Origin: a bacterium
GTDB lineage: Bacteria > Desulfobacterota > Binatia > HRBIN30 > CADEER01
NCBI GenBank assembly: GCA_030430165.1
Contig: JAUIGL010000012.1
Span: forward strand, 6,137 to 70,136
DNA: 64,000 nucleotides
Direction: 5' to 3'
The position numbers and the translations under genes were made by a program. Below, piece after piece: positions 7,604 to 59,063 of the stretch. Every line of letters begins with the position of its first letter. Positions within the stretch are counted from its first letter, which is position 1. The notes under the pieces were generated by a model. It saw nothing but the letters and a program-made list of their open reading frames with translations. It did no database searches and was not told where the DNA came from.

Positions 7604-7622
7604 CCCCCCTTACCAAGGGGGG
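7604..7622. repeat. GC hairpin A: CCCCCC-TTACCAA-GGGGGG
   Basis: Read directly from the sequence. Its loop is the reverse complement of the hairpin B loop. Confidence 0.5.
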
Positions 7623-7696
7623 ACTTCAGGGGGGGCAACCGGGATGCCGTTGGACCGAGATGAGACGCCTGGCGGCGTGGCGTGACCTCCCCCTAA

Positions 7697-7719
7697 CCCC
7701 CTCCTTGGTAAGGAGGGGG
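7697..7719. repeat. GC hairpin B: CCCCCTCC-TTGGTAA-GGAGGGGG (inverted copy of hairpin A element)
   Basis: Read directly from the sequence. Flanking G-runs (GGGGGGG at 7629-7635; CTCCCCCTAA at 7687-7696) also mirror each other. Confidence 0.5.
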
Positions 7720-11815: not shown

Positions 11816-13843
11816 GTGATGCAGTGGCGTGAGCCCGACTTCCTATGGTTGAGCGGTTTGGTCGTATTGCTCGGCGCGGTGCTGGCGCTTGCCCTGCGCG
11901 GCCGGGTGCGCGCTCTCGAACGTTTCGTCGACGCCGATCTCGGCCGTCGTCTCGCGGTGGGCTCGAGTGCGGCGCGCCGCATCGCCTGCGTTGCGTTGCG
12001 GCTGGCTGCCCTGTTGCTGGTGGTGGTCGCGCTGGCCGGCCCGAAGTGGGGCTTTCACTGGGAAGAAGTGCGGCGCGAGGGGATCGATCTGCTGGTGGCG
12101 CTCGACACCTCGCGCAGCATGCTGGCGACCGACGTCAAGCCGAATCGACTGGAGCGGGCCAAGCTCGCCGTGCTCGACCTGCTGCCGCGCCTGCGCGGTG
12201 ATCGCATCGGGCTCGTCGCCTATGCCGGCACTGCGTTTCTCGAGGCGCCGCTGACCTTGGACTACGCCGCCTTCGCGCGCTCGCTGCGCGCGCTCCAGGT
12301 CGGCATCATCCCGCGCGGCGGAACCTCGCTGAGCCGCGCCATCGAAACCAGTCTCGAAGCGTTCGAAGCGCGCCAGGGCAAGTACGAAGCGCTGATTCTG
12401 ATCACCGACGGCGAGGATCACGAGGGCGACGCGCTCGACGCCGCAACGCTCGCCGCCGAGCGCGGGGTGAGGATCTACACGGTCGGCATCGGTACCCCGG
12501 AGGGCGAGCTGTTGCCGCTGCCCGGCGCGACCGCCGGCTACGTCAAGGATCGCAAGGGACAAGTCGTCAAGTCGCGACTGAACGAGGAACTGCTGCGCGA
12601 CATCGCGCTCGACACCGGCGGAGCGTACGTGCGTGGTCTCGGCCCGCAACTCGGTCTCGACGAGGTGTTCGACCAGCACATCGCCAAGATGGAGCGGCGC
12701 GAGGTCGACAGTGGGCTCGAGCGGCGCTTCGAGCATCGCTTTCAGCTGCCGCTGCTGCTGGCGTTGGTCCTGTTGCTGGTCGAGGCCCTGATCGGCGAGC
12801 GACCGGGGCGGGCGCGCGGCTGGTTGGCGAGGTTGAGCCGCAACCGCGCCGCGGCTTCCGCCTCGATCCTCTGGCTCGCCGTCGCGTTCGCCGAACCGGT
12901 ACCAGCCGGCCTGCTCGACTTCGAGGACCATCCCATCAACCAGGGCGTCGAAGCGTTCGAGCGGGGCGACTACGAGGCAGCGGTCGAAACCTTTGGCGAC
13001 GCTCTGGTGGAGTCGCCGGCCGATCCCCAGCTGCAGTTCGACCTCGGCGCCGCGCTGTACAAGCAGGGGCGCTACGAGGAGGCGATCGCGACGCTCGAGA
13101 AAGCGGCGACCGAGGGCGGCGAGAAATGGGCCGCGCCGGCCAACTACAACCTCGGCAACGCCTACTACCGCGCCGGCGCGGAGACCGAAGGCGAGCAACC
13201 ACAGCAGACACTCGAGCGCTGGGCGCAGGCGCTTTTGGCCTACCGGCGCGCGCTCGCCGTCGATCCGGCCGACGAAGATGCCCAGTTCAATCACGAGCTG
13301 GTGCAGAAGCGAATCGACGAGCTGCGCCAGCGTCTCGAGGACGAGCAGCAGGAAGAGCAGGAACAGGAACAACAGCCCGACGGCGACCAGCAGCAGGAGC
13401 AGGAGGAGCAGTCGGACGGCGAGCAGGAAGAGGGCGAAGAGCAGCAGGAGTCCGAGCAGGGCGAGCAGGAGCGACAGCAGGAGCAGGGTGAGCAGGAGCA
13501 GGGCGAGCAGCAGCAAGACGACTCGCAACAGCCCGACTCCGAGGCAGGAGAGGAGCAGCCACAGCCCGAGGAGTCCGAGGCCGGGGAGCAGGACGAGGAG
13601 GCGGCCGACGACGCTGCCGAGCAGCAGCCGCAAGACGAGCAGCCGGCCGACGAGCCGCAGCAGGAGGAGCAGCCGGCGGCGCAGGGCGGCGGCGAGGCGA
13701 CGGCGTCCGACGAAGAGCGAGCCGCGGAGGAGCAGGCCGCCCAGGCGGTGCTCGACACGGCGCGCGAGGAAGAGCTCGGTCCGCAGGACATCGAGCGCCG
13801 CACCGGCGTTGCCGGTGTCGGCGATCCGATGCAGGATTGGTAG
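11816..13843 (+). CDS. VWA + TPR fusion protein (BatB/BatC-like) with about 170-aa Glu/Gln-rich acidic C-terminal tail
   Basis: The MIDAS motif is DLLVALDTSRSM, followed by TPR-like repeats (YNLGNAYYRAG, YRRALAVDP) and an EQQEEQEQEQQ... low-complexity region. Confidence 0.75.
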   Translation: MMQWREPDFLWLSGLVVLLGAVLALALRGRVRALERFVDADLGRRLAVGSSAARRIACVALRLAALLLVVVALAGPKWGFHWEEVRREGIDLLVALDTSRSMLATDVKPNRLERAKLAVLDLLPRLRGDRIGLVAYAGTAFLEAPLTLDYAAFARSLRALQVGIIPRGGTSLSRAIETSLEAFEARQGKYEALILITDGEDHEGDALDAATLAAERGVRIYTVGIGTPEGELLPLPGATAGYVKDRKGQVVKSRLNEELLRDIALDTGGAYVRGLGPQLGLDEVFDQHIAKMERREVDSGLERRFEHRFQLPLLLALVLLLVEALIGERPGRARGWLARLSRNRAAASASILWLAVAFAEPVPAGLLDFEDHPINQGVEAFERGDYEAAVETFGDALVESPADPQLQFDLGAALYKQGRYEEAIATLEKAATEGGEKWAAPANYNLGNAYYRAGAETEGEQPQQTLERWAQALLAYRRALAVDPADEDAQFNHELVQKRIDELRQRLEDEQQEEQEQEQQPDGDQQQEQEEQSDGEQEEGEEQQESEQGEQERQQEQGEQEQGEQQQDDSQQPDSEAGEEQPQPEESEAGEQDEEAADDAAEQQPQDEQPADEPQQEEQPAAQGGGEATASDEERAAEEQAAQAVLDTAREEELGPQDIERRTGVAGVGDPMQDW

Positions 13844-16414: not shown

Positions 16415-16560
16415 AGTCCCTCGATACGCGCTGCGCGCTACTCGGGAACACGGAAGTGGTCGGAAAGACCTCAGCCGACCCGGGCCTTAGCCTCTCCCGT
16501 CTTCCCCGAGTAGCCCGAAGGGCGTATCGAGGGGCCCCCTACTCGGGAATCCGGAGTCGG
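16415..16560. repeat. Cluster of short direct and inverted repeats (CTACTCGGGAA x3; CCCTCGATACGC inverted pair; TAGGGCCCC/GGGGCCCCCTA) in convergent intergenic gap
   Basis: Read directly from the sequence. Confidence 0.35.
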
Positions 16561-55089: not shown

Positions 55090-55236
55090 AGCCGCAGATG
55101 AACGCTGACTTGCGCCGATCTTTTCTCCACGGGTGAACACGGAAAGCACGGATTGGGTCGTTTGCCATCCGTGTCCTCCGTGTTCACCCGTGGGCCCCTA
55201 TCAGCTATCTGCGTTCATCAGCGTCCATCTGCGGCT
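55090..55236. mobile_element. MITE/REP-like element copy 1: 19-bp terminal inverted repeats AGCCGCAGATGAACGCTGA / TCAGCGTCCATCTGCGGCT enclosing 17-bp inner hairpin CCACGGGTGAACACGGA...TCCGTGTTCACCCGTGG
   Basis: Read directly from the sequence; it has no coding capacity. Confidence 0.5.
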
Positions 55237-55245
55237 CGAAGTCGA

Positions 55246-56436
55246 TTATGCGGGATACGCTTCGAACAGCGCCGCGGCGCCCATGCCGCCGCCGATGCAC
55301 ATGGTGACGATGCCCCACTTCTTCTTGCGGCGGCGCAGCTCGAGCAGGATGGCGCCGGTCTGGCGCGCGCCGGTCATGCCGTAGGGGTGGCCGATCGAGA
55401 TCGCTCCGCCGTTGACGTTGAGCTTGTCGGGGTCGATGCCGAGACGGTCGCGGATGTAGACGGTCTGCGAAGCGAACGCCTCGTTGAGCTCGATCAGGTC
55501 GATGTCCTCGAGCTTCTTGCCCTGGCGCTGCAGCAGGGTCGGGATGGCGAACACCGGACCGATCCCCATCTCGTCGGGCTCACAGCCGGAGATGACCAGG
55601 CCGTGGTAGGCGCCGAGCGGCTTCAGGTTGCGCCTCTCGGCCTCCTTGTCGCTCATCATCACCAGCGCCGCGGCGCCGTCGGACAGCTGCGAGGCGTTGC
55701 CGGCGGTCACCGAGCCGCCTTCCTTGAACGCGCCCTTGAGCTGCGACAGGCCTTCGAGCGTGGTGTTGGGGCGCGGACCTTCGTCCATCGCCACGTCGAG
55801 CTCGACCTCCGAGGTTTCGCCGGTCGCCTTGTCGGTCTTCTGCATGGTGACGTGCATCGGCGCGATCTCGTCGGCGAGGGCGCCCGATTCCATGGCCGCG
55901 GCGGTGCGCATCTGCGACGACAGCGCGTACTCGTCCTGCGACTCGCGCGTCACGTTGTAGCGCTCGGCGACGACCTCGGCGGTGTCGCCCATCGCCATGT
56001 AGATCTCGGGCTTGTGCTCCTGCACCCAGGGATTGATGTAGTCGTGGAGGTTGAGGTTGGCCTGGACGCGCGAGATCGACTCGACGCCGCAGGCCACCGT
56101 GACCGGCACGTCGTCGACGACGATGCGCTGGGCGGCGACCGAAACCGCCTGCAGGCCCGACGAGCAGTAGCGGTTGATGGTCGTGCCAGCGGTGGTGACC
56201 GGACATCCGGCGCGGATCGCGGCGACGCGGGCGACGTTGTTGCCGGTCGACCCTTCGGGGAGTCCGCAGCCGGCGACGACGTCCTCGACCGCTTCGGCTT
56301 CGATGCCCGAGCGCTCGATGGCGTGCTGGATGGCGTGGCCGAGCAGGTCCGCGCCGTGGGTGAGGTTGTATGCTCCGCGAAACGCCTTGCCGATCGGCGT
56401 CCGCGCAGTGGAGACGATCACTGCTTGCTTGGCCAT
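55246..56436 (-). CDS. Acetyl-CoA C-acetyltransferase (thiolase II)
   Basis: The N-terminal Cys region (NRYCSSGLQAV), the C-terminal GHPYGMTGAR and the CIGGGMGAA signatures are present. Confidence 0.9.
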   Translation of the reverse strand: MAKQAVIVSTARTPIGKAFRGAYNLTHGADLLGHAIQHAIERSGIEAEAVEDVVAGCGLPEGSTGNNVARVAAIRAGCPVTTAGTTINRYCSSGLQAVSVAAQRIVVDDVPVTVACGVESISRVQANLNLHDYINPWVQEHKPEIYMAMGDTAEVVAERYNVTRESQDEYALSSQMRTAAAMESGALADEIAPMHVTMQKTDKATGETSEVELDVAMDEGPRPNTTLEGLSQLKGAFKEGGSVTAGNASQLSDGAAALVMMSDKEAERRNLKPLGAYHGLVISGCEPDEMGIGPVFAIPTLLQRQGKKLEDIDLIELNEAFASQTVYIRDRLGIDPDKLNVNGGAISIGHPYGMTGARQTGAILLELRRRKKKWGIVTMCIGGGMGAAALFEAYPA

Positions 56437-56570
56437 GATGGTGAACTCCTATTCAGTTTGGGGAATCTGCGAATCGTCGCGCTTTTGCGGAGCAGCGTCA
56501 ACCGCGTCTGGGGAGCATGGAAGGGGATGGGGGTCTGGTTTTCTCTCTCGCGCCAAGGGGTTTCTGGTTC

Positions 56571-56748
56571 TTTTTTCTCGCGCCAAGACGCCAAGGCGCC
56601 AAGGGGGGCCTAGGTCTTCTGGGTTGATTGGCTAGACGATTATAACTGCTCTATTTATATCACTTCGCTTGGGTGGGTTTCTGAAGCCCCAAAAACCAAA
56701 AGCCCCCTTGGCGCCTTGGCGCCTTGGCGTCTTGGCGCGAGAAAAAAA
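56571..56748. repeat. IR-flanked AT-rich island: 38-46-bp near-perfect inverted arms built from GCGCCAAG(G) units around about 95-bp low-GC core
   Basis: The left arm is TTTTTTCTCGCGCCAAGACGCCAAGGCGCCAAGGGGGG. The right arm is its reverse complement with one extra CGCCAAGG unit. The core contains TTGATT...TATAAC and, on the minus strand, TTATAAT. Confidence 0.5.
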
Positions 56749-56775
56749 CGGAAAACCCGATTCCCCGAGAGCCAG

Positions 56776-57735
56776 CTATTCGATCAGGGCGGCGCTGCGC
56801 GACAGGATTGTTTCGGCTTCGCGGACCATGGATTCGACGACCTCGCTGGCGGGGACGATTTCGCTGATGCCGCCGATGCCCTGGCCGGCGGGCATGCAGG
56901 TGCGGTCGGTGTCGATGCCTTCCTCGACGGCGTAGCCCATCACCCCGGCGGAGAAGCTCTTGGCGATTTGCTCGGGGAAGCGCTGGATCGACTCGGCGTG
57001 GCGTTCCTGCTCTTCGACGTAGGGGTTGTTGATGACGCGCATCGGCTTGCCGGAGTAGCAGCGGCTGATGATGGTGTCGCCGCCGCCGCGCTCGGTGATC
57101 AGCTGCTTGAACTCCTTCGCCGCGCGCGCCTCGGTGGTGGCGATGAAGCGCGTGCCGACCCAAACGCCGTCGGCGCCGAGGGCGAGGGCGGCGGCGAGGC
57201 CGCGGCCGTCGACGATCGATCCGGCGCCGAGCACCGGAATGTCGACGGCGTCGACGATCTGCGGGATCAGCGCCATCGCGGCGACGCGCCCGGTGTGGCC
57301 GCCGGCTTCGGTGCCCTGCGCCACCACCATGTCGCAGCCGGCTTCTTCGGCGCGCACCGCGTGCTCGACCCGGCCGCACATCGACACCACCTTGAGTCCG
57401 GCGTCGTGCAGCTTGCCGATCACCGGACCGGGCACGCCGAGGCCGGCGATGAACGAGGAAGCGCCCTCTTCGATGATGACGTCGATCGCCGCCACCATCT
57501 GCTCGGGCAGGGCGGCGAGCAGGTCGACGCCGAACGGTTTGTCAGTCAGCTCGCGGACCCGCTGCATCTGCTTGCGGATTCCCTCGGGGCTCTCGGTCGC
57601 CATGCCGAGCGTCCCGTAGCCGCCGGCCTGCGACACCGCGGCGCACACCTCGGCGTAGGCGACCTGGCCCATCCCGGCGAGGAATACCGGGTGCTCGATT
57701 GCAAACATCTCACAGACGCGGGTTTTGATTGTCAT
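56776..57735 (-). CDS. Nitronate monooxygenase (NMO, 2-nitropropane dioxygenase-like) FMN-dependent TIM-barrel
   Basis: The N-terminus FAIEHPVFLAGMG, the motif VVAQGTEAGGH and the 319-aa length fit NMO. Confidence 0.8.
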   Translation of the reverse strand: MTIKTRVCEMFAIEHPVFLAGMGQVAYAEVCAAVSQAGGYGTLGMATESPEGIRKQMQRVRELTDKPFGVDLLAALPEQMVAAIDVIIEEGASSFIAGLGVPGPVIGKLHDAGLKVVSMCGRVEHAVRAEEAGCDMVVAQGTEAGGHTGRVAAMALIPQIVDAVDIPVLGAGSIVDGRGLAAALALGADGVWVGTRFIATTEARAAKEFKQLITERGGGDTIISRCYSGKPMRVINNPYVEEQERHAESIQRFPEQIAKSFSAGVMGYAVEEGIDTDRTCMPAGQGIGGISEIVPASEVVESMVREAETILSRSAALIE

Positions 57736-57790
57736 GGCTGTCTCCTGCGGGTACTCCGGCCACTCTTACTAAGTGGGCGGGGGGAAAAGA

Positions 57791-57819
57791 AGCCGCAGAT
57801 GAACGCGGATGAACGCTGA
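57791..57819. repeat. Solo or partial copy of the MITE-like terminal repeat (AGCCGCAGATGAACGCGGATGAACGCTGA)
   Basis: Same terminus as the elements at 55090 and 58924, with an internal GATGAACGC duplication and no matching right end nearby. Confidence 0.4.
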
Positions 57820-57885
57820 TTGGGTTTCCAGTCGAGCCGCTGCTGATGGATTTGCCACGGGGGCGGTTGCGTGGTGAGTGGAGCC

Positions 57886-58890: not shown

Positions 58891-58923
58891 GAGACAGGTT
58901 CGAAGAAAAAACTAGCCGCAGAT

Positions 58924-59063
58924 ACACGCAGATTTTCGCAGATGCCCCGATCCACGGATGAACACGGGAGACACGGATGGCGAGGGCTCAGCCCGTGTTC
59001 TCCGTGTTCACCCGTGGAAAAGAATCAGCGCAAATCAGCGTCCATCTGCGGCTAAAGATTCTA
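58924..59063. mobile_element. MITE/REP-like element copy 3 (termini AGCCGCAGATACACGCAGA... / ...TCAGCGTCCATCTGCGGCT, inner hairpin CCACGGATGAACACGG...CCGTGTTCACCCGTGG)
   Basis: Read directly from the sequence; it lies in the convergent gap between the LLM and amidotransferase genes. Confidence 0.5.

Follow-up and report, generated by a model that had tools for sequence, protein, structure and literature searches.

In the 64,000-nucleotide (nt) stretch of contig JAUIGL010000012.1 analyzed here (assembly GCA_030430165.1, lineage Binatia; hereafter the window), the spacer between a gene for an NMO-family flavin oxidoreductase and a thiolase gene contains a 178-nt palindrome at positions 56571-56748, the arms of which are inverted arrays of an 8-nt unit. 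Very probably, this palindrome is a member of a cross-phylum repeat family and was gained at this site in a lineage-specific manner. The family is tightly linked to genes encoding GxxExxY proteins (PF13366/TIGR04256), and the window copy is probably a gene-less, non-autonomous partner of a nuclease-encoding cassette, similar to repetitive extragenic palindromes (REPs) and miniature inverted-repeat transposable elements (MITEs). The parts of the element and its surroundings are as follows; ORF denotes an open reading frame, and L numbers denote loci fetched for comparison.

56571..56608, plus strand: left arm, comprising T6 (56571-56576), CTC (56577-56579), the three units GCGCCAAG, ACGCCAAG and GCGCCAAG (56580-56603) and then G5; from repeat finding, Tandem Repeats Finder (TRF) and the family arm profile.
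56609..56702, no strand: non-conserved core or loop of 94 nt; from sequence, BLAST and a remnant search.
56703..56748, minus strand: right arm, comprising a C-run, the four units CTTGGCGC, CTTGGCGC, CTTGGCGT and CTTGGCGC of the CTTGGCG[C/T] type (56707-56738), GAG (56739-56741) and A7 (56742-56748); from repeat finding, TRF and the family arm profile.
56541..56560, plus strand: solo terminal unit TTCTCT-CTC-GCGCCAAG-GGG; from direct repeats D6 and D7, a terminal-motif scan and comparison with L124.
56749..56767, minus strand: weak terminator-like hairpin (CGGGGAATCGGGTTTTCCG) immediately past the NMO stop codon; from a terminator scan and inverted repeat I3.
56437..56513, minus strand: conserved thiolase leader TTGAC...GAATAGGAG...ATG, outside the element; from spacer alignment A1.
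56437..56775, minus strand: NMO-to-thiolase intergenic spacer of 339 nt, host of the element; from ORFs, Pfam and the orthologous loci L124, L126, L127 and L231.
56776..57735, minus strand: NMO-family flavin oxidoreductase, upstream flanking gene; Pfam PF03060, E = 1e-66.
55246..56436, minus strand: thiolase, downstream flanking gene; Pfam PF00108 and PF02803.

The initial annotation, a model's reading of the sequence, had described inverted arms of tandem units around an AT-richer island, and this is what the sequence contains. Its description of the arms holds, but its figures need adjusting: the core is 94 nt long at 43.6% GC (not 95 bp at about 40%), with an AT-richest part of 46 nt at 35% GC, and the whole window has 67.6% GC (not 69%). 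Counted from their outer ends, the two arms are identical over 34 nt, after which the right arm has an extra 8-nt unit and a G5/C5 pair follows; the loop between the unit arrays measures 103 nt. TRF counts 3.1 copies of the unit in the left arm and 4.1 in the right, in agreement with the annotated surplus of one unit. Also as annotated, the end of the left arm is partly repeated in direct orientation (TTCTCTCTCGCGCCAAGGGG) just upstream, at 56541-56560; this copy forms one half of a duplication of about 31 nt (CTCGCGCCAAG, GGG and a TTTCTGGTT-like tail). Behind the hairpin at 56749-56767 comes a T7 run, which on the minus strand is also where the element has its outer end. The hairpin can further form loose pairs with 56523-56543, giving an outer inverted repeat (I3), and is missing from the relative L124.

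The arrays stand out clearly from their surroundings. With up to two mismatches, the 16-mer formed by the unit occurs six times in the 64-kb window against 0.16 expected, and five of the six occurrences lie at the element. As folded DNA the structure has z = -9.0, and none of 200 shuffles folds as well. Scans for the unit, the terminal motif and the arm profile each identify a single element of its kind within the window, and BLAST of the core and flanks against the window and all fetched loci gave no second copy. The core contains no ORF and no GxxExxY remnant, and an exact look-up of the thiolase protein returned no record. BLAST of the element against plasmids yielded nothing beyond 31-nt matches in Vibrio plasmids. 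These matches, to the CTTGGCGC unit array at 93.5% identity (e.g., Vibrio parahaemolyticus NZ_CP033143.1, 45588-45618), occur in 11 plasmids, most of them from shrimp (Penaeus vannamei), at one to three places each and at sites that carry no annotated feature.

The arm sequence is spread widely among bacteria. A scan of a species-representative genome collection with the arm 20-mer CTCGCGCCAAGNCGCCAAGG, for which a few chance matches are expected, returned at least 116 stretches from more than 15 phyla, and all matches listed are in metagenome-assembled genomes (MAGs). These include Verrucomicrobiota, Planctomycetota, Acidobacteriota, Binatia, Myxococcota, several Desulfobacterota groups, Nitrospiraceae, Gamma- and Betaproteobacteria, Bacteroidota, Chloroflexota, Cyanobacteria, Spirochaetota, Lentisphaerae, KSB1, Hydrogenedentes, Methylomirabilales and one Halobacteria bin. 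The same 20-mer matched five viral-contig stretches. One viral contig of 24.8 kb, IMGVR_UViG_3300036859_000561 (L120/L121), has seven short-loop hairpins of the family within about 8.7 kb and no GxxExxY gene in the part examined; such a contig is a possible vehicle for spread across phyla.

Nearly every occurrence of the motif in the matched loci is paired with an inverted second arm, as CTCGCGC...GCGCGAG. The unit has the 8-nt consensus RCGCNRAG and the skeleton xCGCxRAG, with variants in CCAAG, CAAAG, CAGAG, CGGAG and CGAAG. A relaxed detector found 654 arms, with two units in 255 of them, three in 392 and four in 7. The outer cap CTC is present in 484 of the 654 (74%) and a T at position -4 in 57%, with A/T-rich sequence on the flanks. 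Most loops measure 20-100 nt (median 56, average 45% GC); between genomes whose arms are near-identical, the loops are unrelated. A single MAG can contain several copies with a common loop and some common flank, showing that these are true multi-copy repeats. Gene-less copies predominate: of the 99 neighboring arm pairs counted in arm-selected DNA, loops are below 150 nt in 88, and only 2 pairs enclose the GxxExxY gene. No consistent target-site duplication was found at the sharp CTC...GAG ends, and flank logos show A/T-richness only. The family is defined by inverted arrays of two to four units with CTC outside, an A/T-rich flank and an unrelated AT-richer loop. Its full-length form has a GxxExxY gene in the loop or between two hairpins. 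In L041 (6967-7335) and L048 (2141-2532), long loops between the arms are filled with GGTTCAGGG-type runs and contain CTGTCATTCCGAGG/GGGAATCCAG palindromes, which points to composite, nested repeat elements.

The window copy shares this architecture. Its three-unit and four-unit arms each have at least two tandem xCGCxRAG units; its ends, TTTTTT-CTC-GCGC... and ...GCGC-GAG-AAAAAAA, combine the CTC/GAG cap with a T at -4 and an A/T-rich flank; and its second arm is inverted across a short loop that matches nothing else. A profile hidden Markov model, built from 197 arms beside GxxExxY genes in protein-selected loci only and independent of the window, matches the left arm at 56572-56604 (E = 2.5e-8) and the right arm at 56747-56715 (E = 2.1e-8) on opposite strands in an nhmmer search. 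The extra right-arm unit scores E = 0.02, and nothing else in the 64-kb window falls below E 0.01. As tblastn found no GxxExxY gene in the window and the loop holds no remnant of one, the copy is classed with the gene-less majority.

The link to GxxExxY genes is evident from both directions. Within the arm-selected DNA, the arms of L037 and L069 enclose one small ORF, which is PF13366 (PDDEXK_3)/TIGR04256 with E = 1e-37 to 1e-40, and those of L039 enclose an internally deleted copy of the same ORF; remnants of the gene are present in a few gene-less loops (L195, L028 and L039). All seven GxxExxY genes or fragments from 118 loci, 116 of them arm-selected and together giving about 824 kb in the arm census, lie within 200 nt of arms, and GxxExxY is the sole recurrent small ORF family beside arms. 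One other small gene, a HicB-like antitoxin-type ORF in L078 (3979-4405), is the only small non-GxxExxY gene found between family arms. In the reverse test, 80 metagenome loci were chosen by the protein alone, 74 of them with flanks on both sides. An arm lies within 150 nt in 65 of these 74, and in 48 of the 74 the gene is bracketed by a forward arm on its upstream side and a reverse arm on its downstream side. Most arms in the protein-selected loci are 0-20 nt from the ORF. The 80 loci comprise 31 with the ORF between two facing arms (>ORF<), 16 with the order hairpin-ORF-hairpin, and others of mixed layout.

Variant arrays also accompany distant GxxExxY genes of cultured bacteria. The arms consist of CACGCGAAG units in Sphingomonas parapaucimobilis, of 9-10-nt CGCAGAGG units in Gemmatirosa and of CACAGAG units in the AT-rich Bernardetia. 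In S. parapaucimobilis (NZ_CP155749.1, 482837-483265; L227), the whole cassette, with arms CACGCGAAGGCGCGAGGACGCGAAG ... CTTCGCGGCTTCGCGTG, sits between fabD and fabG; in S. paeninsulae (L230) the fabD-fabG spacer is empty and about 40 nt long.

At about 128 amino acids, the partner protein is a minimal nuclease of the Cas4/RecB-like PD-(D/E)XK type, and its D...ExK site is intact. The D67...E77-x-K79 and GxxExxY motifs are invariant. The family has no solved structure, but the AlphaFold model is a confident one, with a pLDDT of 94. The family is very large, with at least 8000 clusters at 90% identity, and proteins from different phyla are 70-80% identical. Sequence searches of PDB, PADLOC and PHROGs with GxxExxY gave nothing or a faint Cas4-like match. 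The catalogue entry for PF13366 lists its function as "Unknown" and records multiple transfers between bacterial divisions and archaea (PMC3424549). A full-text literature search, mostly without subscription journals, found this superfamily catalogue entry and otherwise incidental mentions of GxxExxY only, and no description of the arms or of their link to GxxExxY/PF13366/TIGR04256. The palindromic repeat family is apparently undescribed.

How the arms are conserved bears on what reads them. In 160 distinct gene-less hairpins, the two arms were aligned at their outer ends and compared at each base. Unit positions 1 and 5 (i.e., every fourth base) match no better than shuffled controls, with complementarity of 0.29-0.41 against 0.34-0.41. 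The CGC and AG positions are near-invariant, and position 6 tracks the subfamily. Perfect stems are found in 4 of the 160 hairpins; typically there are three to six mismatches per 19-27 positions. Arms around ORFs show the same loss of complementarity at every fourth base. Because complementarity is not kept there, the arms resemble protein-recognition ends rather than a stable helix or a structural RNA, and the sequence pattern suggests that the conserved object is each arm's own sequence, CGC-N-RAG-N repeated, in inverted orientation.

Copy number within such arrays is evidently fluid. At one syntenic GxxExxY locus (L209-L218 and L219-L226), with the gene order 239-amino-acid gene, GxxExxY, 137/138-amino-acid gene and peptidase S8, tandem 86-nt hairpin modules number two to four upstream and two to three downstream, differing between metagenome samples. 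This variation indicates that slippage of units or modules is common, and it plausibly explains both the extra unit and the duplication in the window. The proposal of slippage in the initial annotation is plausible to this extent, given the rarity of four-unit arms and the variation in module number between strains elsewhere.

Comparison of orthologous NMO-to-thiolase loci, found via close NMO protein homologues, dates the element to its lineage. The orthologous spacers are 100-158 nt long, versus 339 nt in the window. Where the NMO is 84% identical (L126, L127/L128 and L231; four Binatia-like spacers with three distinct sequences), the spacers are 100-123 nt and contain no arm units. One of these orthologs (P0241) is on a 4.77-Mb contig of an uncultured Candidatus Binatia bacterium, which places the window in a Binatia-like organism. 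In a relative with 94% NMO identity (L124/L125), the spacer is 158 nt and has one arm only (CTTGGCTGCTTGGCGTCTTGGCGCGAG and A7); ahead of this arm, some 18 nt can be aligned to the window core at its arm-proximal end. The TTGAC...GAATAGGAG...ATG leader beside the thiolase start is found in every one of the orthologous spacers; situated downstream of the element, it delimits the zone of insertion. Short, unit-free spacers in relatives imply that the element was gained between the NMO stop codon and the thiolase leader in this lineage. The element is an insertion and not a conserved regulatory hairpin, a role that the initial annotation had proposed to judge by orthologous spacers and that is contradicted by its absence from the 84% relatives. 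It has since been remodeled by the gain of one unit, plausibly through slippage, by the local duplication of about 31 nt in the window and by truncation in the sister lineage, in an order that can be proposed only provisionally. Two Logan contigs with an identical NMO gene, L001 (SRR24442552) and L002 (ERR3428548), stop inside the right arm, as expected of an inverted repeat in de Bruijn assembly; the same insertion is thus seen in two independent samples.

A tentative mechanism in which the nuclease drives propagation can be proposed for the family. The unit arrays would be putative recognition sites of the nuclease, read as sequence in each arm and not as a perfect helix. Cleavage at or near the arms might then lead host repair or replication to copy the element. 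Either the nuclease would mobilize hairpins in trans, in the manner of REPINs (paired REPs) and RAYTs (REP-associated tyrosine transposases), or the nuclease gene would home into pre-existing hairpins. The window copy would be passive and would rely on a GxxExxY gene at another place in its genome, or it may now be inert. Any effect on the NMO and thiolase transcripts, through a 40-bp stem in read-through RNA, would be a by-product.

Several observations weigh against the gene-less partner reading and its mechanism. The 64-kb window has no GxxExxY gene by tblastn and one copy of the element. GxxExxY function has no biochemical or genetic backing in the literature searched, and a 128-amino-acid nuclease alone cannot perform strand transfer. 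The comparisons gave neither a target-site duplication nor a filled/empty pair of sites resolved to the nucleotide. In two MAGs, what is repeated reaches past the arms; larger repeats may therefore include the hairpin as one of their modules. The association of arms with GxxExxY could also arise from insertion preference or shared expression signals and not from mobilization. Identical GxxExxY proteins in new contexts were considered as a sign of recent transposition and rejected; the 14 and 8 contigs concerned represent one syntenic locus, which fits a stably inherited gene. Finally, the window copy is atypical for the family in its perfect 34-nt match and its four-unit arm, from which it is inferred to be young or recently homogenized.

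Among other explanations, an RNA-level device selected at the locus is unlikely, whether it would terminate or attenuate transcription, be processed by RNase III or stabilize a 3' end. Its attraction lies in the folding of the spacer RNA (-142.7 kcal/mol, z = -6.6, with none of 100 shuffles as good), in the start of the element 27 nt past the NMO stop codon, and in the weak terminator-like hairpin with T7 at the upstream edge. Moreover, most family hairpins lie in spacers between tandem (15) or convergent (7) genes, with few between divergent genes (2), a count that depends on naive ORF calling and is too crude to rely on, and the purine-rich units beside ATG in full cassettes resemble Shine-Dalgarno sequences. 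However, the big stem is followed by an A-run on both strands and by a U-tract on neither, and the weak 8-pair hairpin with T7 at 56767-56742 alone fits a terminator. The element is missing from orthologous spacers that keep the thiolase leader, so that the terminator or attenuator role once suggested for the big stem is not borne out. Across the family, pairing between arms is not kept at every fourth position and most stems have three to six mismatches, as described above; in a strand test around oriented ORFs, G.U-type mismatches on the sense strand are in weak excess over A.C mismatches (51 vs 37). Rfam gave nothing above the gathering threshold in the window region (best 19 bits vs 100) or in 10 family loci.

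A classical MITE, derived by internal deletion from an insertion sequence and served by a DDE or other true transposase elsewhere, is distinctly improbable. The initial annotation had considered a second MITE type or a horizontally acquired promoter cassette, and the MITE-like, horizontally acquired part of this stands in modified form: the element is a 178-nt structure with terminal inverted repeats and an AT-richer non-coding core, it is missing from orthologous spacers and its presence is lineage-specific, and the family is multi-copy in other genomes, where copies share a core. Yet there is no consistent target-site duplication at the ends, and the T6 and A7 flanks in the window are inverted, not direct. 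No transposase-like ORF lies between or beside the arms, the loops are unrelated between genomes with near-identical arms, and the window has one copy. That the sole coding partner of the family is a PD-(D/E)XK nuclease, together with the lack of a target-site duplication and of a transposase relative, indicates that the element is not a classical MITE. Still less probable is an integron attC site or gene-cassette remnant with GxxExxY as frequent cargo. In its favor, the small promoterless ORFs here are separated or flanked by imperfect palindromes of 60-140 nt, hairpin-ORF-hairpin arrays occur in 16 of the 80 protein-selected loci, and the taxonomic range of chromosomal integrons resembles that of the repeat family. 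attC sites have R''/R' core sites of the form RYYYAAC...GTTRRRY and conserved extrahelical bases. The ends of the family are CTCGCGC...GCGCGAG instead; conserved extrahelical bases are absent and the window stem is perfect; the commonest layout is the ORF inside one palindrome (31 of 80); the cargo is essentially one protein family; and hairpins are found singly between housekeeping genes.

A REP/REPIN-type repeat served by a RAYT transposase of the HUH tyrosine type is highly unlikely, even though the overall logic is the same: a dispersed intergenic palindrome, no target-site duplication and one protein gene flanked by inverted repeats. REPs are defined by a GTAG/CGTC tag and by stems of 8-13 bp with loops of 4-5 nt (PMC3733652). 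The element has neither a GTAG nor a CGTC tag, its arms are 27-nt unit arrays and not such short stem-loops (PMC3733652), and the flanked gene is PF13366, with a Cas4-like PD-(D/E)XK fold and not an HUH one. Scarcely credible, lastly, is a purely local product, whether a palindrome from slippage or template switching or a promoter cassette unrelated to repeats elsewhere. The perfectly identical arms, the single extra unit, the local 31-nt duplication and the TTATAAT in the core, read on the minus strand, could be taken to favor it. The same capped unit arrays nevertheless occur in hundreds of loci from many phyla, and the profile matches with E = 2e-8; family scan and profile match together exclude chance or a purely local origin. 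The promoter cassette proposed around TTATAAT also fails, as a promoter scan returned no promoter-like site of the sigma-70 type and the conserved leader lies downstream, beside the thiolase start.

The window also contains other repeats. A second family of unit-array palindromes is present at 55090-55236, 57790-57820 and 58913-59054. Its outer arms have units of about 10 nt (AGCCGCAGATGAACGCTGAC... / ...ATCTGCGTTCATCAGCGTCCATCTGCGGCT) and nested inner arms of CCACGGGTGAACACGGAAAGCACGGAT and its complement, and one solo arm lies upstream of the NMO gene. It is probably the first MITE type of the initial annotation. Taking this second family and the studied element together, a unit-array palindrome is present in each of the spacers around the NMO-thiolase pair. 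C[AG]C[AG]GAT units are also found in 10 other fetched loci, including MAGs of Verrucomicrobia, Planctomycetota, Binatia and Moduliflexus, and there are hints that unit-array palindromes may form a broader superfamily. Elsewhere, dense imperfect tandem repeats of 9, 15 and 42 nt (AGCAGGAGC-type) at 13338-13705 are probably a low-complexity coding stretch, and inverted repeats occur at 16418-16533 (29 nt at 90%; CCCTCGATACGCGCTGCGCGCTACTCGGG...) and 7604-7717 (32 nt at 78%; CCCCCCTTACCAAGGGGGG...).

Taken further, the gene-less partner reading raises the possibility, itself tentative, of a cross-phylum class of selfish or commensal DNA in which a GxxExxY nuclease recognizes inverted 8-nt arrays and propagates itself, gene-less palindromes or both. 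If true, this would be a third type of repeat with a dedicated enzyme, beside the transposases of insertion sequences (ISs) and MITEs and the REP-RAYT system. More conservatively, it is a new variant of that theme, as known from REP-RAYT and MITE-IS, and would become a new element class if nuclease-driven propagation were confirmed. A very large protein family of unlisted function gains concrete, testable biology in the form of bracketed genes, scattered gene-less copies and turnover between close relatives. The palindromes break short-read assemblies and sit inside operons such as fabD-fabG and NMO-thiolase, with possible effects on the processing of transcripts, the stability of genomes and the quality of MAGs. 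Should the nuclease read an 8-nt code in the arrays, it would be a possible source of new sequence-specific DNA tools.

Known systems share parts of this arrangement. Free-standing homing endonuclease genes of the PD-(D/E)XK I-Ssp6803I type likewise place a small nuclease gene in the middle of a pseudo-palindromic site that is uninterrupted elsewhere, and cross-phylum transfer has been noted for PF13366 (PMC3424549). Here, by contrast, a dispersed repeat would serve as the target, each half-site is a 27-nt unit array and cleavage is putative. Integron gene cassettes and their attC sites also combine imperfect palindromes of similar size with small promoterless ORFs, occasionally in arrays; the present family differs in having no R/L core sites, a single cargo family, an ORF that is usually inside the palindrome and no integrase seen. 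In 23S rRNA intervening sequences of the Leptospira/Coxiella type, complementary arms form a stem around a small ORF; this ORF is one of a multi-copy family that has no assigned function and occurs in bacteria of the same kinds. Unlike these, the elements described here lie in ordinary intergenic spacers and have unit-array arms, and their ORF is GxxExxY and not a four-helix-bundle protein.

MITEs are closer in form, with terminal inverted repeats, an AT-richer non-coding core, a length of 60-250 nt, insertion polymorphism between relatives, and rare longer gene-carrying relatives with internally deleted intermediates (as in L039 and L195). They differ from the present family in that here there is no target-site duplication, the partner is a 128-amino-acid nuclease instead of a transposase, and the cores are unrelated between genomes. 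The closest parallel in organization is the REP/REPIN-RAYT system (REPtrons). In both, short non-coding palindromes are dispersed in intergenic DNA and far outnumber one small protein gene, which they flank in inverted orientation; a target-site duplication is seen in neither, and in both the gene can be stably and syntenically inherited. However, the enzyme here is of the PD-(D/E)XK type (Cas4/RecB-like) with predicted activity, whereas RAYTs are HUH-Y1 enzymes. The arms are CTC-capped arrays of 8-nt units and not GTAG-tagged hairpins of 20-40 nt, and, while REPs are species-specific, the arm sequence of this family is conserved over more than 15 phyla.

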